Positions 348-42,399 of a stretch of DNA of 64,000 nt are shown piece by piece. Both the position numbers and the translations under genes were made by a program. The stretch is from a virus (Duplodnaviria; Caudoviricetes): IMG/VR virus record IMGVR_UViG_3300008262_000055; one strand, written 5' to 3'. How positions within the stretch are numbered: position 1 is the stretch's first letter; each line of letters starts with the position of its first letter. The notes below the pieces were generated by a model that was not told the origin of the DNA, ran no database searches, and saw nothing but the letters and a program-made list of their open reading frames with translations.

Positions 348-575
348 TTAAGCCTCTAGGACCCATTTCGGGCTAGGCCACTGCCAGGTCAGTGCAAACA
401 GTGTATAATCCGCATCCGCCGGCAACCATATCCATGCTTTGTAATATGTCAGGGTTTTTTGATATTTTACAGAATAGCGTAGACTCCACTCTAGTAGATG
501 TTGATCTAACACAGTGTTGAAGTACAGGGCACTTTGACCACCCGCACCCGTGGGCAAATTGAACTCTATGTGCAT
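348..575 (-). CDS. small hypothetical protein
   Basis: ORF 348..608. The likely start is ATG at 575 (MHIEFNLP...), preceded by TAAATA-N5. Confidence 0.7.
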   Translation of the reverse strand: MHIEFNLPTGAGGQSALYFNTVLDQHLLEWSLRYSVKYQKTLTYYKAWIWLPADADYTLFALTWQWPSPKWVLEA

Positions 576-580
576 GCTAT

Positions 581-601
581 TATTTAAAAAATCTGTAAAT
601 A
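581..601. promoter_or_regulatory. back-to-back T4-like late promoter motifs (TAAATA on both strands)
   Basis: tattta at 581-586 lies 5 nt before the minus-strand ATG at 575. taaata at 596-601 lies 5 nt before the plus-strand ATG at 607. Confidence 0.75.
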
Positions 602-606
602 ATTGC

Positions 607-1035
607 ATGACCGCACAAGCACAGTTCTTTAAGCTGTTAGTTGACCACAGTTCTGTTACGGGCTTTGAGTGCCCTGAAAGTCTGTATTGGTATTTGAGTC
701 ACTTACTAGACAGTCGTCTTACCCGTGTAGATCTCATTCCAGACCCTAGTTTTGCTGAACGCTACCTACTGCTGTATCAAAGCACAGATTCCACACAGTA
801 CAAAGACTACGCAGACAGCTGTTTGTTCTTTACAGCACTATTACCAGAATATGGACAGCGTAGAGGACTGTCAATGGACTATTACGCTACCTTAGGTATC
901 AGTACTTACTACGCACTGGGCGATATGGTTTCTGATCCTAGATTCACACAGCTGGGCAATTGGTTCTACGCACTACAGAAGTTCTTAAACTCTGCTATAA
1001 AGCCAGAGCAAAGACTACAGCTATTCCCAATATAA
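607..1035 (+). CDS. conserved hypothetical protein (bacterial-type DCLFFxxLxPE family)
   Basis: ORF 550..1035 with likely start ATG 607. Motifs YLSHLL, SFAERYL, YADSCLFFTALLPE and SMDYYATLGISTY. Confidence 0.75.
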   Translation: MTAQAQFFKLLVDHSSVTGFECPESLYWYLSHLLDSRLTRVDLIPDPSFAERYLLLYQSTDSTQYKDYADSCLFFTALLPEYGQRRGLSMDYYATLGISTYYALGDMVSDPRFTQLGNWFYALQKFLNSAIKPEQRLQLFPI

Positions 1036-1108
1036 TCACAGCGGGTTTTAGTAGTTGATACAGTGTCCATAGTGTCACTAGTATAGAAAATTTTATGGCT
1101 GCTAACAT
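995..1108 (-). CDS. 37-aa hydrophobic (membrane) peptide
   Basis: Hand-translated as MLAAIKFSILVTLWTLYQLLKPAVIILGIAVVFALAL*. TAACTA (1114-1119) lies 5 nt upstream of the ATG. The ORF is below the track length cutoff. Confidence 0.55.
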   Translation of the reverse strand: MLAAIKFSILVTLWTLYQLLKPAVIILGIAVVFALAL

Positions 1109-1288
1109 ACTAGTAGTTATCTCTCGGGCAGAGTAGGGCACAGTGAGCAACGCAGTCTGCGAGCATGTATAATATGCTCAGATTAAGCCAAGGAAAAATT
1201 GCTTGCACATCTATCGCTACCGCTGCTGCTTCGCAGCTCAAAAAAATCGCTGAGGCTCCGCCTATCTAGACTACCACCAACCCTGGGT

Positions 1289-1723
1289 TCATCGGTATAG
1301 ATAGTTCACTGAAGTTTCGTTGACTCGCCATTTTTCCGCACCGTTTTTAAGGTGAAAGCGTTCAGCCATTTCTGTCTTTGGGCTTAGTGTGACGTAGGTC
1401 ATAACTTCTGGATGTGTCTTACGGATTTCGCTCTGTGCTTCTTCTATGAGTCTACGGCCCGCACCCTGGGCATAGCTCCATATGGTGTAGAACACTGCGG
1501 TATTGGTCTGTACCACGGTGTTGACTAGGTCTTCTACTTGTGTGGGCACTGATTCTAGAAATTTCACGCAGGTCACAGCTATGGGCTGATCGTTGTCGTC
1601 TTTGAGCACGTAGATTTCTGAGTTTTCGTTTACTCGTTGTTCCAGGGGAATTTCAGGTCTCACAGGGTCATCTTTGACGAGTCTTGTGAGTTCGTCCCCT
1701 AGGTCTCTGATGATGTGTAGCAT
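1289..1723 (-). CDS. GNAT-fold protein resembling malonyl-CoA decarboxylase catalytic domain
   Basis: TAVFYTIW...GAGRRLI...YVTLSP resembles MCD TAVFYSIS...FVTLSP. SD AGGGGA upstream. Confidence 0.6.
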   Translation of the reverse strand: MLHIIRDLGDELTRLVKDDPVRPEIPLEQRVNENSEIYVLKDDNDQPIAVTCVKFLESVPTQVEDLVNTVVQTNTAVFYTIWSYAQGAGRRLIEEAQSEIRKTHPEVMTYVTLSPKTEMAERFHLKNGAEKWRVNETSVNYLYR

Positions 1724-1760
1724 GGTATTCCCCTGTTGTACAGGTATTTATAATCTGCTA

Positions 1761-2462: not shown

Positions 2463-2807
2463 TTAAACTCCGTACCGGTTTTTCTTGGGTTTAGCCACAG
2501 GACTTAGATTGCTGGTATCTGTGGGTTCGTGACTGCCGCGATCTGCTATTATGCGACCCTTGTGTCCTGTTTGCCTACTACCACCTGCTATGATCGCTTC
2601 TTCTTCGGGTGTATAGGCCACTATCACTGCGTGATTACCAGTAGGGCCTTCTGGGTAATTTATGGTATGATCAGCCATGGCCATGCCAAATCTATAGGCA
2701 CGATAAGCATCTGAACTGGGCATAGTGGGAAATTCGTAGGTGGTGCTCATCACTGAGCTCTTACGCTTGGGAAATGTTCTTTCTACAATGAATTCTTTTG
2801 CACGCAT
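2463..2807 (-). CDS. hypothetical protein, candidate internal head protein
   Basis: 114-aa ORF. N-terminus MRAKEFIVE resembles the T4 capsid-targeting sequence. TAAATA-N4-ATG upstream. Confidence 0.7.
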   Translation of the reverse strand: MRAKEFIVERTFPKRKSSVMSTTYEFPTMPSSDAYRAYRFGMAMADHTINYPEGPTGNHAVIVAYTPEEEAIIAGGSRQTGHKGRIIADRGSHEPTDTSNLSPVAKPKKNRYGV

Positions 2808-2810
2808 CCA

Positions 2811-3050
2811 TTATTTAGCCCACTTTAAGCGATAGTTTAATAATGTCTGTTCGTTGTAGAATTCCACGATTAGTTTACACCAGTGATCATCACGCTGCTC
2901 TAGCATTAACTGGCAGTTTCCACGCTGCTGATCCAACAGCCAACGGGTCTGTTCTAGTCCTATGGTTTTGTGTACTTTGGGCCAATCTATTTCTATGTGT
3001 TCGCCTTCACTGGGTAACCAGCGATATAATTCTACTGCTTTATTCTTCAT
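2811..3050 (-). CDS. hypothetical protein
   Basis: 79-aa ORF tiling between helicase and the next gene. Confidence 0.7.
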   Translation of the reverse strand: MKNKAVELYRWLPSEGEHIEIDWPKVHKTIGLEQTRWLLDQQRGNCQLMLEQRDDHWCKLIVEFYNEQTLLNYRLKWAK

Positions 3051-4464: not shown

Positions 4465-5144
4465 TTTTTATCTTTGAGATTAAATTTACTTACCACGTGG
4501 CCATCTCCAGGATAGTTCTTAATTAGTTCTGCTAACTGCTGTGCTAGTCTATGATTATCGTTAATGGATAAATGATTGTCGTATTTCATTGTATCTGAGT
4601 CAATATGCGAGTAATTAAAAAGATTGTCTTTGAATCTTACGCCTCGCTTAAACTCATAATCATTCCATTTGCCATAAAAACATTGTAGGTGATATACCTG
4701 TTCTATATCAGGATATAGATCTAGTGTTTCGTCAATTTCTCTAAACCATTGTTGTTGAGCCCACAAGTGAAAGTCTTCGCTGACCAAATATTGAAAATAT
4801 GCTTTTGCCGCATCCCACAAGTCGTCGTCATTAGGCTCAATACCTCGTAAACTGCCATCTAGAGAGCAGGCCAATGTTAATGGTTTGTTACGATCATTGG
4901 GCAGTCGCATAGGTTCTGTGTGACAGAAAATCAAAACTTTTGGTTGATTTTTAAGATAAAACGGTAACTGTTTTTTCACACTCCACCAACTGGCACCACC
5001 CCACCCGTAACCTCTAGCAGGATTGGTAGGTCCCGGATCTTTGTCCGTTAATAGATTTGATAGTCTATAAGGCCAATGATTTGGAACTTTTCTTTGACTA
5101 CAAAAACTATCACCTAAAATAACTATATCATTCCACGTATACAT
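4461..5144 (-). CDS. SGNH/GDSL-like hydrolase/acyltransferase-fold protein
   Basis: N-terminal ILGDSF, a Gly block GGASWW, and C-terminal DNH. Confidence 0.5.
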   Translation of the reverse strand: MYTWNDIVILGDSFCSQRKVPNHWPYRLSNLLTDKDPGPTNPARGYGWGGASWWSVKKQLPFYLKNQPKVLIFCHTEPMRLPNDRNKPLTLACSLDGSLRGIEPNDDDLWDAAKAYFQYLVSEDFHLWAQQQWFREIDETLDLYPDIEQVYHLQCFYGKWNDYEFKRGVRFKDNLFNYSHIDSDTMKYDNHLSINDNHRLAQQLAELIKNYPGDGHVVSKFNLKDKK

Positions 5145-6303
5145 TATTAATATTATACACTCTTATTCTAGTACTAGCAAGCCAGGGTTCAACCATCTTC
5201 CAAGTATCGGGAAATACTTCAGGATAGTTTTGTTCACGTATTTGATCACGTAGATATATTGCCTGCCAAAATGTCTGCCACTTCCAACTGAGATCATACG
5301 GACTGTTAAGATACCCCACAATTACTGATCGTTGTTCTTCCCAATCCTTTTGATCCGTTTTACTTGTCTGTGATTCTAATTTTCTTATCAACTGATTTCT
5401 TATATCTCTAGGAATGATTTGAACACTGTGATCTCCGTGTACAATGTTTAAATAAAAACTAATATTTTTTGATCTATAAAATTCATAGGTTTCAAACACA
5501 TCGTTGATGTTAAACACACTTAGACTAAAACATACACCTAATTTCCAAGGTTGTTGTTTAAAAAGATCTAAATTTGACACATGTTCATTCCAATTGGCTG
5601 GGTGTCTAAGATATTCAAATTTTTGTTCTATGCCGTCTGTGCTGACCTGTATGTCTACACTTTTAAACTTGTTCAACAAATCGATATGCTGCGATGGGAA
5701 TATAGTACCGTTGGTATTATAATGTAGACTGATATCTTGGCTACGTCCTTGTGACACTAACTGCTCTAATAACAACCAGTGGCTGTCTATATAAAATGGT
5801 TCACCACCACTAAAATCAATATGCTGTATAGTATCACTAAACTCATAGAGTTCTTGCCACTGACTGCTGACTTTGAATAACTTAGGCATCTTATCGCCTA
5901 ATCGCTTGGCTTCTTCTGCTGCCCATTGGCTGGAGTTTTCTGGACCACATATCCTACAGCGTAGATTACACAGATTATCCATACTGACATCTAATACCGC
6001 AGGTAGACTATTAGGGGAGAAATTGTCTATGCCCCAACGGTCATTGTCTCTAATTCTCTTAGATTGTTTTCCGGCTTTTTCTTCGTTCCAACAACTGGAA
6101 CATTCTGATACAGATTCGCCTTGATCTAAACGCTGAATAAAATGTTGTCTATCTTTGCTAGACCAAAATTCTGATATCTTAGCAGTTTCTAAAGTTTGAC
6201 TTTTATTGTCAGTAATAAAAATCTTTCTGCTCATACAACATGGCTTAACTATACCATTTGGATGAACGCTGAGATTCATATAAGCATTTACACATCGGGT
6301 CAT
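5128..6303 (-). CDS. radical SAM protein with N-terminal twitch/SPASM-like Cys cluster
   Basis: CNLRCRIC (CxxxCxxC), FSGGEPF, YNTNGT and STDG, plus N-terminal C...PCC...CSSC. Confidence 0.9.
   Translation of the reverse strand: MTRCVNAYMNLSVHPNGIVKPCCMSRKIFITDNKSQTLETAKISEFWSSKDRQHFIQRLDQGESVSECSSCWNEEKAGKQSKRIRDNDRWGIDNFSPNSLPAVLDVSMDNLCNLRCRICGPENSSQWAAEEAKRLGDKMPKLFKVSSQWQELYEFSDTIQHIDFSGGEPFYIDSHWLLLEQLVSQGRSQDISLHYNTNGTIFPSQHIDLLNKFKSVDIQVSTDGIEQKFEYLRHPANWNEHVSNLDLFKQQPWKLGVCFSLSVFNINDVFETYEFYRSKNISFYLNIVHGDHSVQIIPRDIRNQLIRKLESQTSKTDQKDWEEQRSVIVGYLNSPYDLSWKWQTFWQAIYLRDQIREQNYPEVFPDTWKMVEPWLASTRIRVYNINNVYVE
5152..5180 (-). promoter_or_regulatory. sigma70-type promoter for the SGNH-helicase genes
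   Basis: TTGCTA-17-TATAAT-7-ATG(5144), embedded in the 3' end of the radical SAM gene. Confidence 0.6.
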
Positions 6304-7226: not shown

Positions 7227-7315
7227 TTGTATATAAACGGATCACGTTTGCGTAATTCTTTAATACGCTTACGATATCTCAACCAGTCTCTAAATCTTTT
7301 GTATAGCCTAAACAT
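7223..7315 (-). CDS. 30-aa basic peptide ending RKRDPFIYK
   Basis: Hand-translated as MFRLYKRFRDWLRYRKRIKELRKRDPFIYK*. Its start overlaps the primase end and its stop overlaps the next start (ATGA). Confidence 0.75.
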   Translation of the reverse strand: MFRLYKRFRDWLRYRKRIKELRKRDPFIYK

Positions 7316-8315
7316 TTTCTTGTACCTTTTTATCAAATTTGTTCTTATATAAATTTATCCGAATAGCACCTTGTTGTGCTGTTGAGATGGCATCAACTAT
7401 TACAAATAAATTTCCATATTTTCTTACAGCATCAGAACAATCTTTAACATCTGACTCCCAATTAGGAAACGCCACTGACCAATCCCATTTTAACGCATGT
7501 TCAATTAACTTACTGCCTGCCTTGTCTTGGTCAGGAATAACTATTACTTCCTTGCCCATTTTATTGATTAACCTAGCTTGATTTTCTGATATTTCGTTGT
7601 GTAGCAATGCTACTCCGTTTACAGCCATGGCATCAAACGGACCCTCTACTACAAACAAATATCTTTGATCTTGTTTTATAGAATCAAGGTTAAACACAAA
7701 ATTGGGATGTTGATCTGAAAGATATTTAGGTTTACCGTCGCGAACTTTCCTAGCAGTCCAGCCTACAACTCTACCACCATAAGTAAACGGAATGATTACT
7801 CTATCTTTGATATCAATCGGAGTCCAATAGAACCTATCGTCTAACGGATCACAACCTCTGTCTACTAGATAACTAACTACTTCTGCTAGCTGAGTTTCTA
7901 GTTCTGAATCTAACTCTTGGTCAATCCATTCAGCTATGGGCAACGACCCCTCTGGCATATCTTTATTAACAAAGTCTATTAATTCTCTATCTTTGGTATT
8001 ATCTTCAGCCCCGCCTTCGGTCTTTAGTGCTTCAAATACCATCAGATTAATATCATCGTCCGGAGCACCTAACCATATCATTAACTGACGTAGCTTTTGG
8101 CTAATCTGTCTACCAGGTTTCCAACTTGCGGTATACCCGCAATTAAAACAGTTAAAGACTAGGCCTTCAGAAAATTTAGCACCGCCACGTTGTCTTGTAT
8201 CAACACCTTCGCCTCTGTGGTGGCAACAGGGAGAATCGAAACTTATCCAACCGCTAGGGGTCTGTTTCTTTTTATAAGGGAGATGTTTGCGAAAGATGTC
8301 TACGACCAGGGCCAT
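7308..8315 (-). CDS. gp61: DNA primase (T4 gp61 type)
   Basis: Zn ribbon CCHH...CFNC and TOPRIM motifs VVEGPFD and DQDKAG. Confidence 0.92.
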   Translation of the reverse strand: MALVVDIFRKHLPYKKKQTPSGWISFDSPCCHHRGEGVDTRQRGGAKFSEGLVFNCFNCGYTASWKPGRQISQKLRQLMIWLGAPDDDINLMVFEALKTEGGAEDNTKDRELIDFVNKDMPEGSLPIAEWIDQELDSELETQLAEVVSYLVDRGCDPLDDRFYWTPIDIKDRVIIPFTYGGRVVGWTARKVRDGKPKYLSDQHPNFVFNLDSIKQDQRYLFVVEGPFDAMAVNGVALLHNEISENQARLINKMGKEVIVIPDQDKAGSKLIEHALKWDWSVAFPNWESDVKDCSDAVRKYGNLFVIVDAISTAQQGAIRINLYKNKFDKKVQENV

Positions 8316-8321
8316 AGACTT

Positions 8322-8350
8322 ATTATACTATATTTGTGTAGTGCTGTCAA
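8322..8350 (-). promoter_or_regulatory. consensus sigma70 promoter of primase operon
   Basis: TTGACA-17-TATAAT-6-ATG(8315). Confidence 0.85.
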
Positions 8351-13511: not shown

Positions 13512-14697
13512 TTTTATTTTCCTTGTTCATAGAAGGTTTAACATTGCCAACATAAAAGACAGTATGGTGGTGTTTGATAAAGGTGGACGTCTGTTTACTA
13601 GTCGCAGGATAGAGACTATTACTTATCAGTATTTTTGGTGAAAAATTAGGTGAGAACATCCATTTCGGCGGCTTGTGTTGGCAAATGAAAATCTTTCCTG
13701 TAGAGATTGGACCACCAAGACTATTATTTTTTATCCATTGATTAAATTTCTTGCCACCTTCGTCTTCATTACTAAATCTAAAACATACACGTATGGATTT
13801 TTCATCAAAATCTGCCTCTTTAAAAGCAGAGATAAAGGTGTTAACATCTTCAATAAGATTACTGGCACGATCTAAAAACAGTACCATGGGATAGGTGTCT
13901 AACGTCCTAATAAAAGAAAAACATTCACTTAAATTTCGAATCCAGAAATTTGTTTCAGTGGTGGAAAAAAATCTGTCAATACGGCTATTTTTATTAAAAT
14001 TGCCTAATTTATACCCCATGCTACGTGCCAGGAATAAATCTTGTACTGTGTTATTTTTTCGATTAGATTCAAAATAATTTTCAGCAGTTTCCGTATAATT
14101 GATCAGTTCAACCGTATTGTCAACTACTCGAGCCTCTGGCGAAAAATCTTCTTCGTGGCTCCAAATTTCCTCAACTTCTGCTACCAAATTTAAAAAATCT
14201 TCAGTCATTTCAAAACTGTTATTTTTTACAAATTCGTGTAGTTGGATGAGGTTAACATCATGTAACTTGATTTTTTGTACACGTAATTCGTCATCCCAGA
14301 CTGCTGGTATTTTTCCGTTCTTATTGGTAAGTTCTTTGACAAATGCTTCTTTCATAGTGAACGGAAACTTCAAGTGCACGTAAGTGATTCCAGTATCTTC
14401 TTTGACTACAGAAACACTTTTGGTATCGTCTAGAATCCTAAAAGGCTTTTTCCAAGTAGGTTGAGCTAGTGCCGCAGAAATATCATTACCGGTAAGAGCT
14501 TTATAAGAACTTTCGTATTTGTGTAACAATCGTACAAGATAATCTCCCTGTTTTTTGGTTAACTGCTTACCACTAGTAATAGTAGTGTAGAAGCTACTCA
14601 CAGGAGACCAATCAAGTTGAGGGGAAACAATATCCCCTTCTAGGATTTTTTCAGCCACTGCTAAGAAAATGTCTTCGATATAGGTGTTATATGACAT
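13498..14697 (-). CDS. conserved hypothetical protein upstream of uvsW
   Basis: 399-aa ORF with its own sigma70-like promoter. Confidence 0.8.
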   Translation of the reverse strand: MSYNTYIEDIFLAVAEKILEGDIVSPQLDWSPVSSFYTTITSGKQLTKKQGDYLVRLLHKYESSYKALTGNDISAALAQPTWKKPFRILDDTKSVSVVKEDTGITYVHLKFPFTMKEAFVKELTNKNGKIPAVWDDELRVQKIKLHDVNLIQLHEFVKNNSFEMTEDFLNLVAEVEEIWSHEEDFSPEARVVDNTVELINYTETAENYFESNRKNNTVQDLFLARSMGYKLGNFNKNSRIDRFFSTTETNFWIRNLSECFSFIRTLDTYPMVLFLDRASNLIEDVNTFISAFKEADFDEKSIRVCFRFSNEDEGGKKFNQWIKNNSLGGPISTGKIFICQHKPPKWMFSPNFSPKILISNSLYPATSKQTSTFIKHHHTVFYVGNVKPSMNKENKIVEL

Positions 14698-14703
14698 TTT
14701 ATA

Positions 14704-14732
14704 ATAATAACAGGTTCATGATAAAAAATCAA
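14704..14732 (-). promoter_or_regulatory. sigma70-type promoter
   Basis: TTGATT-17-TATTAT-6-ATG(14697). Confidence 0.65.
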
Positions 14733-21485: not shown

Positions 21486-22225
21486 TTTCGTTCTATGTCT
21501 TCTTCAATACATTGTTTGCCATATTGTATTTCTATAACCTTTAACGGGTTATCTGTAGGATTGTGTAATTGGTGCCATTCATTAGGATTAATAATTTCAG
21601 TTTTATAAGGCTTAATTGTGCTTCCACCAAATTCCCAATTGTTGCCGGCAACTCCTTCGGCAATAAACCATAATTCAGATCTATGTTTGTGGCGTTGCAT
21701 ACTTAAAGTTTTACCTGGATCTACAGTAAGTTCTTTAACTTTTACATTGTCACCTATAGTATGAAGTACTCTATAATAACCCCAAGGTCTTTCAGTCTTT
21801 GGTGCTTTCCATTCTTGTAAAATCCATCTACTAGAGTTTTGCTTGTCAAACCCGCCTACACCAAACGTAAATGTAAGATTGTCATCTTTAACGTCCATTT
21901 CTGGAATGTTAGCGTGTGTTCGATCGCCGCCGTTGGCAAATATTAAACTGGCGTCAGGATAATGTGCTCGAACCTGTTGTATAAAATGTCTAGCAGAACC
22001 ATCAGCATCATCAAATGTGTAAACTTCATCTACCATTGATAGATTGTTTATTATACATAGGCGTTCGTTCCAAGGCATAAAGGCACGCCCTTTTTTACGT
22101 TCTAGCCATTCATCGGAATTTAATCCAACGATTAACATGTCGCCAAGTGTTTTGGCTTGTTTGAAATAGGCAATATGCCCAGAGTGGATGGGGTCAAAGC
22201 CGCCTGTAACAAGTACTATTTTCAT
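21482..22225 (-). CDS. RfaE-like cytidylyltransferase fused to mannose-6-phosphate-isomerase-type cupin
   Basis: TGGFDPIHSGH (HxGH) and ANGGDR, with C-terminal RPWGYY...SMQRHKHRSELW...IEIQYG. Start ATG 22225 follows TAAATA-N5. Confidence 0.85.
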   Translation of the reverse strand: MKIVLVTGGFDPIHSGHIAYFKQAKTLGDMLIVGLNSDEWLERKKGRAFMPWNERLCIINNLSMVDEVYTFDDADGSARHFIQQVRAHYPDASLIFANGGDRTHANIPEMDVKDDNLTFTFGVGGFDKQNSSRWILQEWKAPKTERPWGYYRVLHTIGDNVKVKELTVDPGKTLSMQRHKHRSELWFIAEGVAGNNWEFGGSTIKPYKTEIINPNEWHQLHNPTDNPLKVIEIQYGKQCIEEDIERK

Positions 22226-22230
22226 GTTTC

Positions 22231-22260
22231 TATTTATTTGAATAATATGCCCACTAAATA
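22231..22260. promoter_or_regulatory. divergent late promoter motifs
   Basis: tattta at 22231-22236 (N5 to minus ATG 22225) and taaata at 22255-22260 upstream of the SD-led gene at 22286. Confidence 0.7.
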
Positions 22261-29376: not shown

Positions 29377-31254
29377 TTATAGTCCAGATAATTCTTTAAT
29401 TCTTGCTAGTTCATTAACTTGAGGTACTTGTGTGTTTTGATTAGGTGCCATACGCTCTACAAACTGTCGAGCTACTTGTTCTGCCTTTGGACCATATTTT
29501 TTGCCTGCCATTATTATCACAGCCTCTGGACCTTTTGGAAAAGTTTCAGACATGCTGTCATAACAACTGTACATAAATTCAGCTAGTTCTTGTATGTTCA
29601 AAGATTCTTCTTGACCAGATCTCTTACGGAAATCTCGAGCATGTCTGTCGTCATGCTTTGCTGGATCAGGTAAACGATATTTGTCAGTGCCTTTGCCTCT
29701 CATACTTGGTGGTAAATCGTAATCGTCTGCTTTGTCGTATTCTGGGTCATTAGGATTGGCAGCTTCGTATTCATTGCCAAAATCTCCATAGTCTTCGTCA
29801 GATCCATGGCCTGCTGATGCTAGGGCATAACTATCATCAGTTTCGCCGCCTTCATCATCGTATTCCTGTGCTGGCATATCCATATCGCCAAAATCTAATT
29901 CATCTACAACGTCAGGAGCATTGTTTTCTAACCACTGATACACCAACGGACGCACACAAGTGTCTGCGTCTTCTTGGGCAGCATCCTTGATTTCACGTGC
30001 TAATTCCGGATCATCGATTATGCCTTTAAGGCTGCTGATAGCATTCTGTCCATCTACACCTGCTGGGAAATGTTCACCCACCAATGACTGTAGTTTCTCA
30101 ACAGCCGCTGCCTTTTCTTCTTCGTCTTGACTAGTAATAGCATTATCTTCGCCTAGGTTCATGGCCCAATCTTCAAATTTTGAAAATGGATCATTAAATT
30201 CTTCTACGCTGTCGAGGTCGAGTTCTACTTCTTCGTTAGTTGATTGTGTCATCGCGACTATGTCGTCATAGTGTATATCTTCTTTGGTCTGCATTAGGCT
30301 ATAAATGATAGGGAATGCGGCCTTGATATCTTCTTTGAAATTCTTTACTGTAAACTTATTTGTTAGATCTTCGATGAACTCTTCTGGAACCTCTGTTACT
30401 TGTTCTGCCTGGAACTGTGCCTTGAATTGCTCGTAATGTGTTCTTTTAGCTAGTTTCTTAATTGTTTCTCTAAGACCGTCTAGTGTTTCATGAGCACGAC
30501 CAACAATCTCATTAGTTTCGGAGTTCATAAGATCATTACGTACTACATAATTTCCAAAATTCTTTAGGTGTGCTATTTTTTCGCTGATACCGATAATGTG
30601 TTTACCGATATCATCGTAAGGCAATCCGCCTTCTTGTACGTGTCTCTGCATAGCACGAGCACCTGCCAAATGGATGAACGGATATTTAAATCGCTCACCT
30701 TGGCCGTTTTCGATGAACATAGCATTGATGTGTCTAGTTCTAGCACCGGGGCTGGTTTCATCTACTTGTTGATCATGCTTGATGATCAAACGTGTGTTTT
30801 CTAATTTTTGGTAGCTGGTTTTAGCAGTACCGTACATTCCTTCTTTCATAACTCCCTCTCCGACAGGTGTATTATTTGCATATTGACTTAAGAAACTAAA
30901 GTCTCTTTGATCTAAATTATCTTTGGTAATATCGCGTGTGTCAAAACTCATTAATCGACGTTTGGCAAACTCTCTAAGACCTCTTAGAAAATCGTACCAA
31001 CCATCTTTTTGTACAGCATCCATATTTTCAGTAATGCCCGTACTATAGTAGACTTTCATATTCCCAGGCTCGGCTAAACTGATACTTACATGCCCTACAG
31101 GGTTTTCTCCCTCCATGTAATCAAAGTCAAAGAATACCGCATCTTCTGGGTTGATGGTAATTTCGCCTAATTCGGAACCTAATTTTAGGCCAGAAAAACG
31201 GCTTCTAATCTTATAAAAAAGGTCAGTGCTTACGCTTTTGATATTATCTTCCAT
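29377..31254 (-). CDS. conserved hypothetical late protein (acidic C-terminal half)
   Basis: 625-aa ORF with TAAATA-N5-ATG, located immediately downstream of TerL. Confidence 0.8.
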   Translation of the reverse strand: MEDNIKSVSTDLFYKIRSRFSGLKLGSELGEITINPEDAVFFDFDYMEGENPVGHVSISLAEPGNMKVYYSTGITENMDAVQKDGWYDFLRGLREFAKRRLMSFDTRDITKDNLDQRDFSFLSQYANNTPVGEGVMKEGMYGTAKTSYQKLENTRLIIKHDQQVDETSPGARTRHINAMFIENGQGERFKYPFIHLAGARAMQRHVQEGGLPYDDIGKHIIGISEKIAHLKNFGNYVVRNDLMNSETNEIVGRAHETLDGLRETIKKLAKRTHYEQFKAQFQAEQVTEVPEEFIEDLTNKFTVKNFKEDIKAAFPIIYSLMQTKEDIHYDDIVAMTQSTNEEVELDLDSVEEFNDPFSKFEDWAMNLGEDNAITSQDEEEKAAAVEKLQSLVGEHFPAGVDGQNAISSLKGIIDDPELAREIKDAAQEDADTCVRPLVYQWLENNAPDVVDELDFGDMDMPAQEYDDEGGETDDSYALASAGHGSDEDYGDFGNEYEAANPNDPEYDKADDYDLPPSMRGKGTDKYRLPDPAKHDDRHARDFRKRSGQEESLNIQELAEFMYSCYDSMSETFPKGPEAVIIMAGKKYGPKAEQVARQFVERMAPNQNTQVPQVNELARIKELSGL

Positions 31255-31259
31255 GTTTA

Positions 31260-31265
31260 TATTTA
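31260..31265 (-). promoter_or_regulatory. late promoter motif TAAATA-N5-ATG
   Basis: tattta at 31260-31265, ATG at 31254. Confidence 0.7.
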
Positions 31266-31267
31266 TC

Positions 31268-32854
31268 TTAATATATAGAACTTACATAAATGGGCATAGG
31301 CATCTGATCTTCAGATAACCTTTCCGTCATTTTTTCATAGATATGCGGATCCCAATCGGCTAAAATACCAGCCATCCGTATAATTAGCAGAGTAGACGAT
31401 ACTAGGTCGTCATGTTCGCCTGTTTTAGCACCAAATCCTACTCCGTGTGCTACAAATGTTTTTAACTCAGAAATCAGCGGTTTGCTGTTTATCTTCATCT
31501 TATAGGTTTCTAGCATATTTTTAAGTTGGCTGCAAGCCGTTACTTTAGACCTATGTGTAGTATTAAATCCTTTTCGGAATTTACGTACATGACCTTTTCG
31601 TATAGGTTCGCTTAAGAATAGTCCCGGAAAGTTTTCTTCGCCTATATCGTTAATCGTTATCAACGCTGCTTCGCCCAATGTGTTATTTTCAACAGAATAA
31701 TATATTTGTGGCTGACCACCTAACTCCATAGCACGTTCAGCAATATATTTTAATATCTCTCTCATATGCTTTACCTGCGATTGGATAGGTGTTAGATTGT
31801 GATGCCACTCTGCTACTTGTTCCATCGAAGGCATTTCGTAAACTTGTATAGCACCGTAGTCGCCGCCGGTGCCTAGACTAGGATCAAGTGCTACTAGATA
31901 CGTAGCCTGTGGATTAATTTCTTTATACCAACGTGTTTGCCCCATAGTCATTACAGGATCGACACCTTTGAGTTCTGCTAATTTTACTGCGTTGATTAGG
32001 GTTTCATCAAAAATCAAGAATTCACAATCAAACTCTCTGCGGAAACGCTCGTCGCCAATTTTAGCACGTTCTATTTTTGCCCACTCTTCATCGCGATCCG
32101 GGTGTTCTGCCCAATGAGCAAAATAACTGTAAAAACCGTTAGCTCCTAATTTAGCTTCGTTTCCAAATTCGTCAAACTTCTTGTTAGCCTCGGTCCATAT
32201 CAAAGCAAACTGATCTTCGTCTGAGTTTGGAGTTGATGTAATAATACACTTACCACCTGTTGACAATGTTGGTGATAACGCAGTCCAAAACTCTTTGGCT
32301 TTCTCTGGTGGTTGTACAAACGCAAACTCGTCACAGTAAATCAAGGATAGCGACTTACCACGACCTGTGTTTTCAGTAGTTGTGGTTGCTTGGATACGAG
32401 CACCATTATCGTATTCAATAGTATTCCTGTTATAACTGTAAACGCCAGCACGGATAAAATCAGGTAAATTTTCATAGCCATATCGATAACGATTCATAAT
32501 GTCCTGAGCACCCTCATACTTGTGAGCAGCGATCAAAACCTGTGCTTCAGGTACAAACATTGTGTACCATAATAGATAACCAGTAGCACAGGTAGTCTTA
32601 CCCATCTGACGGGGTAACATAGCTATACATTGCTTGTTTTCGTGATAGGCTTGTATCAATCTTTCTTGATATTCATACGGCTCAAACGGAATGCTTCCAC
32701 GAACAGGATGTTGGATCTTTAAAAAATTTCTACAGAAATACAATGGCCCTGTTATAGGATCCATACATGCTTCTAGATGCTTTACTTCTTCTAAAGTATA
32801 CTTGATCTGAGCATGTGCTTTCTTGATCAGATTACCGTCGAGTGATTTTGCCAT
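31268..32854 (-). CDS. gp17: terminase large subunit (T4 gp17 type)
   Basis: LPRQMGKTT, IYCDEFAFV, ITSTPN, VALDPS and HDDLV. Confidence 0.95.
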   Translation of the reverse strand: MAKSLDGNLIKKAHAQIKYTLEEVKHLEACMDPITGPLYFCRNFLKIQHPVRGSIPFEPYEYQERLIQAYHENKQCIAMLPRQMGKTTCATGYLLWYTMFVPEAQVLIAAHKYEGAQDIMNRYRYGYENLPDFIRAGVYSYNRNTIEYDNGARIQATTTTENTGRGKSLSLIYCDEFAFVQPPEKAKEFWTALSPTLSTGGKCIITSTPNSDEDQFALIWTEANKKFDEFGNEAKLGANGFYSYFAHWAEHPDRDEEWAKIERAKIGDERFRREFDCEFLIFDETLINAVKLAELKGVDPVMTMGQTRWYKEINPQATYLVALDPSLGTGGDYGAIQVYEMPSMEQVAEWHHNLTPIQSQVKHMREILKYIAERAMELGGQPQIYYSVENNTLGEAALITINDIGEENFPGLFLSEPIRKGHVRKFRKGFNTTHRSKVTACSQLKNMLETYKMKINSKPLISELKTFVAHGVGFGAKTGEHDDLVSSTLLIIRMAGILADWDPHIYEKMTERLSEDQMPMPIYVSSIY

Positions 32855-32859
32855 ACAAC

Positions 32860-32865
32860 TATTTA
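32860..32865 (-). promoter_or_regulatory. late promoter motif TAAATA-N5-ATG
   Basis: tattta at 32860-32865, ATG at 32854. Confidence 0.7.
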
Positions 32866-32868: not shown

Positions 32869-32895
32869 AAAAAAATAGGCTCCGAAGAGCCTATT
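32869..32895 (-). terminator. intrinsic terminator with UUCG loop
   Basis: AATAGGCTC-TTCG-GAGCCTATT followed by TTTTT. Confidence 0.88.
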
Positions 32896-32911
32896 TGGTT
32901 TTTATGATTGT

Positions 32912-33457: not shown

Positions 33458-33466
33458 ATTAACTCC

Positions 33467-33928
33467 CTAGGGCACTTTTAGTGCCTGCTTTATCTTGTTT
33501 AGGTGCTTTGGGCATTTTATATTCGCCCTGATTGTTTTCTTTAGTTCTTTCTTTTCGTTTAACAAGGCTTTACCGCTAGGGCCCTCAGCTGGCTCTGCTT
33601 GTTCGAACGGATCGTTGACATTTCTTACACGAAGATGTGTATTAGAAATACCGGTTGATTCGTGTACATCGATCTGTACTTGTTGTGGTGTTACTGGATA
33701 TGAACACTCACATTCAAACACTGTGACTTCTATATTAGATAGATCTAGAAATTCTAGAGCTGTTTTTTGTATAGGTGTAGTAGCTACTTTTTCAAATTTT
33801 CCGCAACCATACTTGCCCATCTTTGCCTTGGCTTTTTCTTCAAAGCTTTCGGGCAACGGGCCAGCAACCTTGATACGGAAACCGTAGGTTTTTTTGCTTT
33901 CAGATAGATATTCTTTGAATGTTTTCAT
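33467..33928 (-). CDS. hypothetical protein with T4-like capsid-targeting N-terminus; frame break near 33556
   Basis: MKTFKEYLSE start after TAAATA-N5. An alternative frame gives a more natural C-terminus ending at 33459. Confidence 0.7.
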   Translation of the reverse strand: MKTFKEYLSESKKTYGFRIKVAGPLPESFEEKAKAKMGKYGCGKFEKVATTPIQKTALEFLDLSNIEVTVFECECSYPVTPQQVQIDVHESTGISNTHLRVRNVNDPFEQAEPAEGPSGKALLNEKKELKKTIRANIKCPKHLNKIKQALKVP

Positions 33929-33933
33929 ATCAG

Positions 33934-33939
33934 TATTTA
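33934..33939 (-). promoter_or_regulatory. late promoter motif TAAATA-N5-ATG
   Basis: tattta at 33934-33939, ATG at 33928. Confidence 0.7.
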
Positions 33940-34419
33940 TTCCTTTCCCTGGAGTTTTTTCAACAACTCGTTGCGATCAGTTATTACAAACGCCTGTCCG
34001 CTGAGCATGTTATTAGAATCATCATCTCCAGCATCTTTGTCAATTTTAAGTTTTTTTAACTTAGCATCTATAGCTTTTAATTTCTTATCAATCTTTGCTG
34101 ATTTAGCATCTATAGCATTTCTCAGCATAGTACCTGCTACTTCAAAAATACGTCCGCTGTAGCGTACTTCTACGTTCATGCCTAAATCCATAAGATCGTC
34201 GTAGGCATCTTCAGCTTTTTTAGCCAATGCGTCTAATTCGTTTTCGCCTAGGTTTTCTAAATCTGCTATATCTGGCAAACGTCCTGCTATAGCATCTACT
34301 TCGCGATAACTTCTTTCTAGATCACGAACTTCTTCTTTAGATTCTTCAATCACAGGAACTTTAGCCTCAACAGCTCTAGTATCTTCTAAGTTAAAAAGTT
34401 CTTCGAGTTTTTTCGTCAT
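33937..34419 (-). CDS. gp16: putative terminase small subunit (gp16-like)
   Basis: RIFEVAGTML and C-terminal FVITDRNELLKKL resemble gp16 PRAYEV...GSTAEL. Lies near TerL. Confidence 0.65.
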   Translation of the reverse strand: MTKKLEELFNLEDTRAVEAKVPVIEESKEEVRDLERSYREVDAIAGRLPDIADLENLGENELDALAKKAEDAYDDLMDLGMNVEVRYSGRIFEVAGTMLRNAIDAKSAKIDKKLKAIDAKLKKLKIDKDAGDDDSNNMLSGQAFVITDRNELLKKLQGKE

Positions 34420-34426
34420 ACTATAC

Positions 34427-34867
34427 TTATCTGCGTTTTGAACCTTTGTGGAAAATATCGTCTTCGTTAACTACTCTAAAACGAATTCCTTGTTGCTTAC
34501 ACCAAGCAGTAGCAGCTTCCCATTTGGCAAGATTTTTTACGTATTGTTCTTGATTGTATCTGCTCTTTCCTACTTTTTCTAAAAAAGTATGATTACTAGG
34601 TTTTACTTCTACTAGTTCGGCGTGTTTTTTTCCGCCTTTGTCATTGTAAACAATAAAAAAATCAGGCACATATATTGTATATTTGCCTGTTAGCGGGTCT
34701 CTATAAGGAATCTGGATACTTTCTGATGCCCAATTTTCCACTCCCGGGTGCTCGTCTAGCATACGCATGAAAACAAATTCCCATGAACTACGTGCCAGCG
34801 GTGTTTTCTTCCCGATATATTTGTCGGGATTTTTCATTTCAAATTTACCTTGAGCAAATTTAACCAT
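34427..34867 (-). CDS. gp4: head completion nuclease (T4 gp4 type, TnsA-like PD-(D/E)xK)
   Basis: RSSWE, WASESIQIPY, YVPDF and VEVKP. Confidence 0.88.
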   Translation of the reverse strand: MVKFAQGKFEMKNPDKYIGKKTPLARSSWEFVFMRMLDEHPGVENWASESIQIPYRDPLTGKYTIYVPDFFIVYNDKGGKKHAELVEVKPSNHTFLEKVGKSRYNQEQYVKNLAKWEAATAWCKQQGIRFRVVNEDDIFHKGSKRR

Positions 34868-35244: not shown

Positions 35245-36374
35245 TCTGCCCTCTTGTTTGTTCCAAAGGATATACCAGGTAATCCACTGGTAACATTATC
35301 TTGCCCTGTGGGTGTTAGTAATATATTTGTTGCTTCTGCGACTAAATTTTCTGGACGAAGAGATGCTAGACTCTTATAAAAATTAATAGCTTTGATAGCA
35401 GCCTGTAACCCGTCTGTTCTAGAAAAAGCACCTTGGACGTTGTTAACTCCGTATATTGTTGAAGCATCTTCAATAATTTGCGACCCTGCGTTAATTAACC
35501 CGCCTGGGCCAAATATAGTAGAAATTTGGCCTCCCCCTATAGTTAAAGGACTAGGAGTTCTATCATAATATAGATCAGCAAAACCTCGAGGTACTCCTCT
35601 GTCAATAATAGAACCGGTTCCATATAAAACTGATTCATAAACAATATTCATCGTAGCTTCAATTGTGCCGTTGTTAGAGCCTTGATCTACGTTTCCGTGA
35701 TTCCAGCTTGTTATATGGGGATTAATCAACGTATAAGCATTGAATTTTTTTCGACTTAAAGTGTATATAGTAATTGAACCAAAGAATGGTCTTGTATAAT
35801 TTATTTTATCAACATCGAGGCCGTATCGAATTTGTCCAGCTTCTATTGCCCCTAAAGTTCTTCCTGTGTTAGTAATGCCTCCGCCTGCTTTGGGAGCTCC
35901 GGTTGTAGTTTGATCTGGAGCATACACTCCGCCTTTTGTCTGTGTCCAAAAATCAGGAGGAAGAAATCTTTCATTAGAATAATGAGAAAGATATTGAGCC
36001 CATAAAGCATTTATTACCCCTAAGTTGTCGTCATGAAAAACAAGATTTAGTGGTTCGTATTTTATTTCTTTGTAAATTACACGTTTCCTGTTATATTGAT
36101 TTTTAACCTCGTGCTCAAAAGTAATTTTAGGTAAATCGGCTTGTTTTACTAACATGTCGATTGCCTGTTGATTATTTTTTAGATATGTAGATGACGCTAC
36201 AGCAGGTTGGTTTATGTTAAACTGAACATGATACAGGAATTTAGTTCTTGGTGCCCGCGACATTCCGTTATCGAGATATAGTCGAGCCGCGTGACGAGCA
36301 TCACCAAGATTTCCCTTGGGGTTTGTGATGCCTTGCCCTACTCCTTGAAGGAATCGTGTGAATTTATCTGCCAT
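35241..36374 (-). CDS. tail-tube-fold baseplate protein (gp54/gp48-like)
   Basis: VKQADLPKITFE...NQYNRKR...YEPLNLVFHDD, adjacent to gp19. TAAATA-N5-ATG. Confidence 0.65.
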   Translation of the reverse strand: MADKFTRFLQGVGQGITNPKGNLGDARHAARLYLDNGMSRAPRTKFLYHVQFNINQPAVASSTYLKNNQQAIDMLVKQADLPKITFEHEVKNQYNRKRVIYKEIKYEPLNLVFHDDNLGVINALWAQYLSHYSNERFLPPDFWTQTKGGVYAPDQTTTGAPKAGGGITNTGRTLGAIEAGQIRYGLDVDKINYTRPFFGSITIYTLSRKKFNAYTLINPHITSWNHGNVDQGSNNGTIEATMNIVYESVLYGTGSIIDRGVPRGFADLYYDRTPSPLTIGGGQISTIFGPGGLINAGSQIIEDASTIYGVNNVQGAFSRTDGLQAAIKAINFYKSLASLRPENLVAEATNILLTPTGQDNVTSGLPGISFGTNKRAE

Positions 36375-36379
36375 AATAT

Positions 36380-36385
36380 TATTTA
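36380..36385 (-). promoter_or_regulatory. late promoter motif TAAATA-N5-ATG
   Basis: tattta at 36380-36385, ATG at 36374. Confidence 0.7.
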
Positions 36386-36390
36386 GTGAT

Positions 36391-36416
36391 AAAAAAAGCC
36401 CGGGGATTCCGGGCTT
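36391..36416 (-). terminator. intrinsic terminator after tail tube gene
   Basis: AAGCCCGG-AATCC-CCGGGCTT followed by TTTTT. Confidence 0.85.
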
Positions 36417-36433
36417 GATTTAATTTTGTGATA

Positions 36434-37066: not shown

Positions 37067-37100
37067 ATTCTTATGCTCCGGATAATATTATTTATCTCTT

Positions 37101-37128
37101 ATAATTGGGGGACAAAGCCCCCAATTAT
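37101..37128 (-). terminator. hairpin between sheath and tube genes
   Basis: ATAATTGGGGG-6nt-CCCCCAATTAT, followed by late motif TAAATA at 37089-37094. Confidence 0.65.
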
Positions 37129-40100: not shown

Positions 40101-40487
40101 TTCAGAACCAGGAATTTCTGATTTAGCAGTTAGGTCATCTAAATTTACTGCTGCTCTGACTACATAGGCAGAATTAGCAGATCCCAAGAAACTATAGGCT
40201 GTCTGTAAGCCATATTCGTTTCTTTCGTCCCCGTGTATTGGAGAACCTGATATTGTTCTCCTAAATGTTGGTGTGCCAAAGAAATCAACAAGTTCTCTTT
40301 GACTTGAAACTTTGTATACTTTACCTGCGTTGGTTGCTAGTGTACCTTGTGCGGTACCTGTTCCGCTAGCGTTTGCTTTGTTTTCTGCAGTAGCAATTAC
40401 GATTAATGGAGTCGTGCTGCTTTCAGCTGGAGTATAAAAACTCTCATCGATTACTGTAACTTCTACGCCTGGTGAATTAAGTGCCAT
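37128..40487 (-). CDS. gp18: tail sheath protein (gp18-like), enlarged
   Basis: Start MALNSPGVEV at 40487 with SD AGGAGA. C-terminal WFAPAG..RG, RINVARL, FEPND and IAIEPVKAIEFIYI. 1119 aa. Confidence 0.95.
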   Translation of the reverse strand: MALNSPGVEVTVIDESFYTPAESSTTPLIVIATAENKANASGTGTAQGTLATNAGKVYKVSSQRELVDFFGTPTFRRTISGSPIHGDERNEYGLQTAYSFLGSANSAYVVRAAVNLDDLTAKSEIPGSEATSGQWWLDTQSTNWGIFEWDSAPAGLAGQKFNNKVPVVITAEDTESLNGTQPASGVGRVGDYAVVTASDVIRVYYKGKDYTTVGEPVSWELLGTKEWRKFWPSFTAEIDGHSSKTSSSTFIINGVQINVPAYTTVGGMVTLINNALIQGVRAANVNGFVTLYITDATDDMVGDSTGSNALVLQDGSATVLSLFGVAAGTYYGPELSMSPHTQVPQWKSNAAISRPSGSIWVKTTDPNLGARWRVKRWNSSSKSWLEVAAPLSANAQGAIFGVNKTGGGAGIDKDTVYVQYNYTEDTGYDNTPQTASFKIFVRKIKGATSVTSDTIGAGTFSGSYTFSMRESLVNNASLSSAISITFTSAGTGADANTLRQAINNAGFVNVEATVLDGKITITHKLGGEIRIIDGDDLFTDAGFVEYNVTDATGTPNFYGSPSVSSDFDYVISNYMPMSGTSTGYVASSDAPLNDPADGQRWFNSLVDQVDIMIHNGSAWVGYKYSGSGGIATTASPVYVNGTDPMGPIVNSVRPLLQSDGTALVTGDLWIDASDLENYPVIYKYQDGLTDQIANNWVLIDKSDSTSEDGIVFGDARWDLNGESKDPATILELLSSDFVDYDAPDPDLYPRGILLFNTRRSGFNIKKYVRNHVNTSADNVRYGDESMIDYESARWVSDSGSDFGRKAQRQVVVEALKGLLNSNAEIREDEVRNFNLIATPGYPEVLQEMIALNIDRGTTAFVVGDAPFRLLPDTNSLNNWGKNVNAATDNGDVGLVSSDAYAGVFYPAGLTSDNTGNTIMVPPSYMMLRTIALNDQVSYPWFAPAGIRRGGVTNATSVGYLESKTGQFKPVALTEGQRDTLANIRVNPLTFFNGVGLVNYGQKTLSTGSSALDRINVARLVIYLRSQLSRLAKPFVFEPNDKLTRDEVRQAVESLLLELVGLRAIYDYAVVCDETNNTPARIDRNELYVDIAIEPVKAIEFIYIPLRLKNTGEIAASRAS

Positions 40488-40603
40488 TCCGTTGTCTCCT
40501 GATGGTTTGAATCTTGTATAATATTTATTCAGTAAACCAAAAAACACAGAGTTTAAACTGTCGGAAAAGGGGTGAAAAAGGTCCAAATTCTTTAAATAGA
40601 TGT

Positions 40604-40939
40604 ATGAGACCCCTATGTAAATGCGGACAAAGGCCGGCCGCTATAAACTATCGCAAAGAAAAAAGAATCTATTATAGATCTCTTTGCGAAATCTGTTTAA
40701 AACACGGAAAGTATCACGGCATACCTAGATGGTATAGAGCAGGGTATAGGAAAAAAAATGCCTGCGACAAATGCGGTTTTAAATCACCGCACCCTGAAAT
40801 TTTCGCAGTTTATCATGTCGATGAAGATCTTAATAATTGTAAGATTGCTAATCTAAAAACAGTATGTGCTAACTGTCAACGAGTGTTAGCTAAAGAAGGC
40901 ATTAAATGGAAACAAGGTGATCTTGTTGCTGATTTTTAA
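40604..40939 (+). CDS. zinc-binding HNH-like protein
   Basis: CKC...CEIC...CDKC...YHVD..LNN..ANLKTVCANC. Start after TAAATA (40593-40598)-N5. Confidence 0.7.
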   Translation: MRPLCKCGQRPAAINYRKEKRIYYRSLCEICLKHGKYHGIPRWYRAGYRKKNACDKCGFKSPHPEIFAVYHVDEDLNNCKIANLKTVCANCQRVLAKEGIKWKQGDLVADF

Positions 40940-41561
40940 TCAATCCTTCAATCTTTTCAAATAGGTCTGATATACCATCGTTGTTATCTAATACAGCATC
41001 AAACTTTGTCCCTACCCAGGCTGTTTCCGAAGCATGTATTTTAAATTGATTTAATCTATCTTTGCTTAAAGCCCAATGTACATGTTTTGGTCCGTGATTG
41101 ACAGCTACAGCATCGTTATACCATTCGGGTTCCGGTCCGCGGACTACTCTTACTACTATTCCGCCAGCCTTTCGAATGCTTTGTATTTCATTAGGAAATC
41201 TACAATCTGAAATTACTACGTTGTCTTTGGAATTTCTAAGTTTATTTTCTAGACTAGCAATCCATATGTCATCATGGAAACTTTTGCGGCAAACTTCTGT
41301 GCCCCAGTATTGTAATACCCATCTAGGAGTTAACGTAGGCATCGATAGACGTTCTGCCCACCATGGATCTACTTGTTCTCGCCATTCTCGGGCTTCTTTA
41401 GTACGGCCTTCAAGCATGGTTCTGTCCCAGCCGAATACTGATGCCACAGCATCTTTTAATGTGTTGGCAAACGATTCGCGTCTAAATTCGTGAAAGTTTA
41501 CAAGATAATCAGCAATGGTGTCTTTGCCTGATCCAATAAAACCGCATACTCCAATAATCAT
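40902..41561 (-). CDS. deoxynucleoside monophosphate kinase (T4 gp1 type)
   Basis: MIIGVCGFIGSGKDT, RWVLQYWGTE, ISDCRFPNE and HASE. SD GGAGA. Confidence 0.92.
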   Translation of the reverse strand: MIIGVCGFIGSGKDTIADYLVNFHEFRRESFANTLKDAVASVFGWDRTMLEGRTKEAREWREQVDPWWAERLSMPTLTPRWVLQYWGTEVCRKSFHDDIWIASLENKLRNSKDNVVISDCRFPNEIQSIRKAGGIVVRVVRGPEPEWYNDAVAVNHGPKHVHWALSKDRLNQFKIHASETAWVGTKFDAVLDNNDGISDLFEKIEGLIKNQQQDHLVSI

Positions 41562-41583
41562 AGTATCTCCTAACAATACTAAT

Positions 41584-41612
41584 ATTGTAGCAGTTTTTTA
41601 TTTTACGGTCAA
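41584..41612 (-). promoter_or_regulatory. sigma70-type promoter of dNMP kinase gene
   Basis: TTGACC-17-TACAAT. Confidence 0.7.
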
Positions 41613-42373
41613 CCGACTACGAAAGTGTATCCAGCATTAGCATGACCAGGAACAAAGTTAACCAATTCCGCTGTTAGTCGTTCAATATCAGCTGTTGCTT
41701 CTTGTTTAAGTGTAGCACCATTTAATGATGTGCCGCCCTGTGGGCCAGCAATTTGAGCAAATTTCTCGCGGGCTTGGCCAAGCATCATTTTACAGTTAGC
41801 TAATGTGTAGTCTTTGATCCATTGACCGGCATAGGTATCAACTAGGATAGCCACGTCTGGGCGTGTGTTGTAGCACCAGAGCATAATTTCTTCGTCAGTT
41901 CTAGGACGTTGATGTATAGTTAGCTTGTGAGATTGAGCGTGCCATGTAAATTGTATAAAACTGCCAAACATCTTGCCCACACGTTCTTGATATCCAGCAA
42001 ACAATTCATATGTTAATAACCCGCCCATATTAGTTGAACTTAACAAATAGGTATTTGTATAGGCTAAGTTGAACGGTTCAAACACTGTTCCACCGCCACC
42101 GCCACCAGATCTAGATCCAATGCTTCGTCGATAAATTTCCCGTACTACTTGGATTTCGTTTGGTAAGGTATAAACGTTTTGATCTTCGGATAGGGTTAAA
42201 AACGCAAAACTTTCTTCTACAGAATTATCCCCTCGTTGCCGAAACACTGCTAAACTACGCTGAATTGCTGTTTCGTAGTGCTGCGGGTCTAGTTCTACGT
42301 CGACCATGCCGTCGCCCAGCATTAAGCGACAATAGTCGAATACTTTTTGTTTTTCTTGATCTAGTTGGCTCAT
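41609..42373 (-). CDS. gp13: neck protein (gp13-like)
   Basis: LG...VDVELD and WIKDYTLANCKMMLG..REKF...NG. TAAATA-N5-ATG. Confidence 0.85.
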   Translation of the reverse strand: MSQLDQEKQKVFDYCRLMLGDGMVDVELDPQHYETAIQRSLAVFRQRGDNSVEESFAFLTLSEDQNVYTLPNEIQVVREIYRRSIGSRSGGGGGGTVFEPFNLAYTNTYLLSSTNMGGLLTYELFAGYQERVGKMFGSFIQFTWHAQSHKLTIHQRPRTDEEIMLWCYNTRPDVAILVDTYAGQWIKDYTLANCKMMLGQAREKFAQIAGPQGGTSLNGATLKQEATADIERLTAELVNFVPGHANAGYTFVVG

Positions 42374-42378
42374 GCTAG

Positions 42379-42399
42379 TATTTATTACAGCGGTAAATA
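42379..42399. promoter_or_regulatory. back-to-back late promoter motifs between gp13 and gp14
   Basis: tattta at 42379-42384 (N5 to ATG 42373) and taaata at 42394-42399 (N1 or N7 to ATG 42401 or 42407). Confidence 0.7.

Follow-up and report, generated by a model that had tools for sequence, protein, structure and literature searches.

The locus and its relatives

The stretch of DNA analysed here, referred to below as the window, comprises 64,000 nt of an uncultured freshwater jumbo phage (IMGVR_UViG_3300008262_000055). Our subject is a hexamer, TAAATA, that lies exactly five bases ahead of the ATG start codon of nine of its genes (TAAATA-N5-ATG, the figure after N giving the number of intervening bases). 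TAAATA boxes precede genes for the terminase, tail tube, head-tail adaptor and virion proteins (Table 1). The metagenomic DNA runs that contain the stretch come from lake water and other freshwater sources. The large terminase encoded in the window is 54% identical to its counterpart in the Pseudomonas phage PA5oct, and its identity to the terminases of Rak2-like phages (CBB, GAP32) is about 45%. No near-identical cultured phage was found in the phage collection searched, and IMG/VR holds at least 80 contigs whose terminases are 85-99% identical to that of the window. Genome-wide tests were performed on three large relatives, G002 (270 kb), G003 (364 kb, 100% complete) and G004 (353 kb); positions 201.7-265.3 kb of G002 are collinear with the window at a nucleotide identity of 81.5%.

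A fixed distance between TAAATA and ATG

A preliminary description of the window had listed nine TAAATA-N5-ATG sites, and all nine are present where it placed them. Only 1.72 would be expected by chance, and none of 100 dinucleotide shuffles reached nine. TAAATA occurs 42 times on the two strands together and is followed by an ATG at exactly N5 in nine cases (binomial p = 8e-9), all of which open open reading frames (ORFs) of 75-625 codons; each of the other distances between 0 and 40 is represented by 0-3 cases. The distribution of box-to-start distances, which that description had proposed as a check, therefore peaks sharply at N5 in the window, and it peaks at N4-N5 in the genomes of the three relatives. 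An unbiased scan that paired each hexamer with each distance ahead of all ATGs opening at least 70 codons returned TAAATA at a distance of five as the sole outlier in the window (z = 7.7), and in the three relatives the TAAATA pair ranks top or near the top alongside Shine-Dalgarno (SD) hexamers. The variants described at 1108(-), 2807(-) and 34419(-) were likewise recovered, as TAACTA-N5, TAAATA-N4 and TAAGTA-N4, respectively. A 5-nt spacer is too short for an SD sequence, as had been pointed out, and in the four cases in which the box was said to lie further upstream (1723, 14769, 22286 and 37066) it stands at 15-25 nt, with the SD sequences GGGGA, GGAGG, AGAGGA and GGAG.

It could be argued that this layout is an artefact of A/T-rich intergenic composition, TAA stop codons and misplaced starts. 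Four of the nine ATGs (575, 607, 22225 and 40604) are indeed not the first possible start in their open frame, which is a caveat for these sites, and one box includes the stop codon of the upstream gene. However, such an origin is scarcely credible, as it is already contradicted by the shuffles, by a peak confined to a single distance at which every match opens a long ORF, by the hexamer scan, by the same peak in three other genomes and its absence from CBB, PA5oct and (judged by counts of the pattern relative to a control) T4, and by orthologues whose protein alignments begin at these very ATGs. We conclude that the TAAATA-N5-ATG layout is real, conserved and strongly non-random.

Conservation of the layout

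ORF-opening ATGs at N4 and N5 together number 20 in G002, 23 in G003 and 30 in G004 (p ~1e-10 to 1e-14). In each of these genomes the counts peak sharply at N4-N5, drop to a few cases at N6-N7 and to a trough between 8 and 15 nt, and rise again to a broad second mode that spans 16-30 nt and is accompanied by SD sites. Such a trough is predicted if the spacing is functional, since a leader of 3-10 nt would be too long for leaderless initiation and too short to hold an SD sequence. Upstream of the terminase gene, about 70 of 80 relatives share a hairpin with compensatory changes in its stem, a T-run, TAAATA and a spacer of 4-6 nt that is free in sequence. For the other eight N5 genes, with orthologues at 21-65 loci, the box and N5 (sometimes N4 or N6) are kept while the letters of the spacer drift. 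Coding-type wobble variation begins right at the ATG, for example ATGAGACC followed by any base, indicating that the N5 ATGs are real starts.

A few relatives (L051, L036 and L044-L049) have replaced the fused promoter of the terminase gene by a leader with the SD sequence AAGGA; L051 has kept TAAATA 15 nt upstream, and L036 and L044-L049 have lost the box. These replacements are natural swaps between two modes of expression.

A DNA-level signal of the T4 late type

In the window, TAAATA is rarer than any other of the 64 hexamers composed of A and T alone. Genes contain 9 copies in sense and 10 in antisense orientation where about 53 would be expected on each strand, a roughly fivefold depletion, and 22 of the 42 copies fall within 40 nt upstream of a gene start on the same strand. 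Avoidance on both strands argues for a signal in DNA rather than in RNA. One might nevertheless propose that TAAATA at N5 acts in the RNA, as an A/U-rich, SD-independent ribosome-binding or enhancer element within a longer leader, and is not a promoter. A/U-rich upstream elements can substitute for the SD sequence in some bacteria, and the N5 genes are without one. Yet an RNA element does not account for the antisense depletion; SD-led genes carry this hexamer too, 15-35 nt upstream, its sequence agrees with the core of the late box in the T4 family and with ATAAATA, the motif that has been proposed for CBB (PMC5259590), relatives encode a gp55-like sigma factor, and an equivalent N6 geometry is found at sigma70-type promoters (see below). 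We consider an RNA-level role very improbable.

The late box of T4 occupies -13 to -6 (PMC1524935), and gp55 recognises a -10-like element without the need for a -35 element (PMC7892883). In this geometry, a TAAATA that ends at -6 and is followed by five bases sets +1 on the A of the ATG, so the published position of the box bears out the T4 start-point spacing that the preliminary description had invoked. Among 41 pooled N5 sites TAAATA is invariant and no upstream position is conserved, -13 and -12 being weak (A at -12 in 21 of 41). All 41 have a C or a T at -1, compared with about 47% pyrimidine in SD-led genes of the same genomes. At their start sites, bacterial RNA polymerases usually prefer +1 to be a purine and -1 to be a pyrimidine. 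The start codons at N5 are ATG without exception (9, 15, 14 and 18 in four sequences), with no GTG or TTG. Strong intrinsic terminators abut the box of the terminase and tail-tube-like genes, leaving about 15 nt for both the promoter and the transcript's 5' end.

A search for the corresponding sigma factor used PHROG families; Pfam gave no usable family for T4 gp55. The preliminary description had suggested looking for a gp55-like factor elsewhere in the genome, and one was found in the collinear relatives G002 (at 152773-153546), G003 and G004, matching phrog_234 (the T4 gp55 family) with E = 1e-25 and phrog_12791 (Rak2-type) with E = 1e-80. The family of the co-activator gp33 gave a weak match in G002 and G003 (12.6 bits, E = 0.03-0.04) to a 144-aa ORF, and the gp45 family a weak match in G004 only (E = 0.006). 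In CBB, too, gp33 and gp45 homologues are only weakly indicated (PMC5259590). In both genomes the 144-aa ORF occupies the same position relative to the sigma gene, at a distance of about 3.4 kb (G002:156891-156980(+) and G003:106658-106747(-)), and possibly encodes a diverged co-activator of the gp33 type. Together, these data support TAAATA as a promoter element of the T4 late kind that acts at the level of DNA, and the motif, the sigma factor and the functions of the genes suggest that it acts late.

Host-type promoters fused to ATG

The fusion of promoter and start codon extends to a second class. In G002 (6 cases), G003 (9) and G004 (14), ORF-opening ATGs are preceded by TTGACA with a peak at exactly 29 nt, the consensus being TTGACA-N17-TATAAT-N6-ATG; no such 29-nt peak is present in CBB or PA5oct. 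The examples from the window, with ATGs at 8315(-), 48522(-), 14697(-) and, at N7, 5144(-), are included in Table 1. Judged by their layout, these sigma70-type promoters would constitute an independent promoter class pointing to the same +1 on the ATG. Since they are fused in a like manner, the leaderless design does not appear to be restricted to late promoters.

Leaderless mRNAs as the probable outcome

The most likely reading of this layout, which we hold to be probable, is that leaderless mRNAs arise from both late-type and host-type promoters. The late-promoter core of this phage clade would be TAAATA, a -10-like element that requires no -35 and is presumably read by host RNA polymerase carrying the gp55-like sigma factor of the phage. 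At about half of the TAAATA promoters the box stands 4-5 bases (occasionally up to 7) ahead of the ATG, and we infer that transcription starts there at the A of the AUG or beside it, giving an mRNA without 5' leader or SD sequence on whose 5'-terminal AUG ribosomes would initiate. At the other half, with the box 15-35 nt upstream, a short leader with a normal SD sequence is expected. The host-type sigma70 promoters being fused alike (TATAAT-N6-ATG), leaderless expression would not be limited to late genes and would be a habit of the clade in general. The pyrimidine at -1, the exclusive use of ATG, the fixed spacing with a drifting spacer and the adjoining upstream terminators all fit a start at the AUG. 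The earlier proposal that many late genes, including those for TerL and gp13, are leaderless is thus favoured by the T4-type box, the relatives' sigma factor, the -1 pyrimidine and the restriction to ATG, the start point itself being deduced from these features. The accompanying idea of a translation route specific to late genes does not hold: leaders of at least 5 nt occur at 10 of the 22 TAAATA promoters of the window, most of them with an SD sequence, and sigma70-type promoters are fused as well.

It is conceivable that TAAATA is a late promoter and that the genes are mainly expressed from longer polycistronic transcripts originating upstream, the close boxes being minor or back-up promoters and translation relying on coupling. 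The boxes at 33928(-) and 2807(-) share bases with the stop codon of the gene before them, genes are tightly packed, and one RNA contig (X17 record 4) spans the predicted tail tube promoter at 37066, which is compatible with read-through. However, strong terminators directly precede the boxes of the terminase and tail-tube-like genes, the former conserved by compensatory changes; the genes at 575/607 and 42373/42407 form divergent pairs with no upstream gene for coupling; and coupling leaves the invariant -1 pyrimidine and the exact spacing unexplained. We therefore deem expression mainly from upstream transcripts unlikely.

Several points weigh against leaderless transcription and translation as we propose it. 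The four metatranscriptome runs consist of low-coverage assembled contigs, a form unable to show transcript starts. The gp55-like gene was found in the relatives only and not in the window, and because the gp33 and gp45 matches are weak, the start-site geometry of T4 is carried over by analogy. The N4, N6 and N7 variants would shift the start by 1-2 bases or yield leaders of 1-2 nt, and the sites at 33928 and 2807 lie inside operons, where read-through and translational coupling could serve the genes too. The layout is missing from the cultured relatives PA5oct and CBB. Finally, the reading presumes a host capable of leaderless translation.

The four metatranscriptome runs contain 6-10% of sampled words. 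RNA contigs over 28800-42800 are short and of low depth, stem from this phage or from strain relatives, and revealed no 5' ends. In run X17, contig depth over 28800-29266 of the window reaches 92, far above the rest of 28800-42800, and several contigs continue into unlike sequence; this excess may reflect an abundant small transcript or a conserved element common to other organisms.

Perhaps the fusion is not neutral and serves several lineages of aquatic T4-like phages as an adaptation of gene expression, keeping many virion and packaging mRNAs translatable when SD-dependent initiation is weak or is shut down during infection by host or phage, possibly including phage-remodelled ribosomes. 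The layout would then also mark hosts in which 70S or leaderless initiation is unusually efficient. We regard this broader scenario as a long shot.

Individual sites

The features discussed are collected in Table 1. Two TAAATA-N5-ATG units stand back to back on opposite strands at 573-609, their predicted starts being separated by 32 nt and their boxes by 9 bp, an arrangement kept in G002 with altered spacers. Polymerases bound there would overlap, so the two promoters may compete. The gene divergent from the adaptor gene (box and ATGs at 42394-42409) appears to be near-leaderless and may start at either of two ATGs, at N1 or N7.

Table 1. Promoter boxes, start codons and terminators in the window
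Feature	Position	Strand	Remark
TAAATA-N5-ATG, small gene 348-575	573..586	-	geometry kept in G002, spacer changed
TAAATA-N5-ATG, gene 607-1035	596..609	+	divergent partner of 575(-) gene
TAACTA-N5-ATG variant, 37-codon ORF, weak case	1106..1119	-	kept in G002
TAAATA-N4-ATG, gene 2463-2807	2805..2817	-	
TGTATAAT-N7-ATG, gene 4461-5144	5142..5157	-	
TTGACA-N17-TATAAT-N6-ATG, gene 7308-8315	8313..8350	-	kept in G002 and G004
TTGATT-N17-TATTAT-N6-ATG, gene 13498-14697	14695..14732	-	
TAAATA-N5-ATG, nucleotidyltransferase-like gene 21482-22225	22223..22236	-	N5 kept in 34 related loci
TAAATA-N5-ATG, virion structural protein gene 29377-31254	31252..31265	-	N5 kept in 63 loci
TAAATA-N5-ATG, large terminase gene 31268-32854	32852..32865	-	TAAATA at N4-N6 in ~70/80 relatives
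Intrinsic terminator hairpin and T-run, abutting terminase box	32873..32896	-	stem pairing kept via compensatory changes
TAAATA-N5-ATG, virion protein gene 33467-33928	33926..33939	-	TAA of box doubles as stop codon of upstream gene
TAAGTA-N4-ATG variant, gene 33937-34419	34417..34429	-	TAAGTA at N4/N5 kept in 61 loci
TAAATA-N5-ATG, tail-tube-like gene 35241-36374	36372..36385	-	
Intrinsic terminator directly upstream of box of tail-tube-like gene	36396..36416	-	
Leadered example: TAAATA 22 nt before tail tube ATG, SD GGAG	37067..37094	-	
TAAATA-N5-ATG, gene 40604-40939	40593..40606	+	third codon varies at wobble base only in relatives
TAAATA-N5-ATG, head-tail adaptor (gp13-like) gene 41609-42373	42371..42384	-	
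TAAATA with ATGs at N1 and N7, gene ending 43621, divergent from adaptor gene	42394..42409	+	sequence kept in relatives
TTGACA-N16-TATAAT-N6-ATG, first gene of heptose operon, ATG 48522	48520..48556	-	

A phage-encoded ribosomal protein bS21 was considered as a partner of the layout and dropped, as it shows no clean association and is present also in PA5oct, which lacks the layout. Matches above the Pfam cut-off are located in two complete relatives, at G003:292290-292445(-) and G004:33352-33510(+), and at PA5oct 170985-171143(+) and HTVC008M (a Pelagibacter phage discussed below) 91237-91392(+); bS21 was not found in G002 or G005, both of which are incomplete genomes.

Implications

If mapping of the RNA confirms the predicted starts, a large and globally common group of freshwater giant phages would express much of its virion and packaging programme from leaderless mRNAs, and SAR11 myophages may, by pattern count alone, share such leaderless late expression. 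Thermus phages and Actinobacteria are documented cases of this mode, whereas for late transcription of the T4 type we came across no account of it. It would also change gene calling, since the box would fix the start codon and SD-based callers would misplace the starts at 575, 607, 22225, 40604 and 48522, and the box would become a predictor of late genes from sequence alone. The host would be constrained to one that translates 5'-terminal AUGs well. Terminator, promoter and ATG would form a compact cassette of about 45 nt, and an evolutionary contrast would emerge, in that the cultured relatives PA5oct and CBB keep leaders and this clade has lost them.

Comparison with known systems

Late transcription of T4 depends on the sigma factor gp55, the co-activator gp33 and the clamp gp45 (PMC1524935, PMC7892883). 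The system described here resembles it in the short A/T-rich, -10-like box without a -35 element and with the core TAAATA (TATAAATA in T4; PMC1524935, PMC7892883), in a gp55-family sigma factor (here in relatives) and in the position of the box ahead of virion and packaging genes. It differs in that the core is six bases long, that gp33 and gp45 homologues are not clearly detectable in the relatives and that roughly one box in two is fused to its ATG, whereas the corresponding count in T4 (10 against 5 in the control) reveals no clear excess. Late mRNAs of T4 carry SD leaders. None of the papers found describes promoters of the gp55 type joined to start codons.

The Rak2-like jumbo phages CBB and GAP32 possess an ATAAATA late motif and a gp55-like sigma factor (PMC5259590). 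The sigma family phrog_12791 is shared between these phages and the three relatives of the window, and the terminases are related. TAAATA is depleted throughout the CBB genome (168 copies compared with 819 expected), but its box lies about 28-35 nt before the starts and never at N4-N5. The genome of PA5oct has no peak in the distance from TAAATA to the start, and the paper on this phage reports TATAATA/TTGAC promoters only and no leaderless mRNAs. A likeness by pattern count alone is found in HTVC008M, a cultured Pelagibacter myophage (Kyanoviridae), in whose 147 kb TAAATA-N5-ATG is enriched (14 sites, compared with 4 for the control) and where most of these sites have a pyrimidine at -1; HTVC008M, however, belongs to another phage family and has a much smaller genome, and no paper was found that describes its promoters as fused to ATG.

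Bacteria of the genus Thermus are known for leaderless mRNAs. The Thermus phages YS40 and Lalka27a have largely leaderless transcriptomes that were mapped experimentally (bioRxiv 10.64898/2026.04.20.719267), and in genes of the various temporal classes the mRNA begins with the first base of the start codon, an A or a G, a likeness to the start on the AUG that is predicted here. The differences are that the starts were mapped in those phages and are deduced here, that their late box is TAGGGT, that they belong to another phage lineage and that their host is Thermus. The promoter type itself is known from T4 and Rak2-like phages, and leaderless phage transcriptomes are known from the phages of Thermus.

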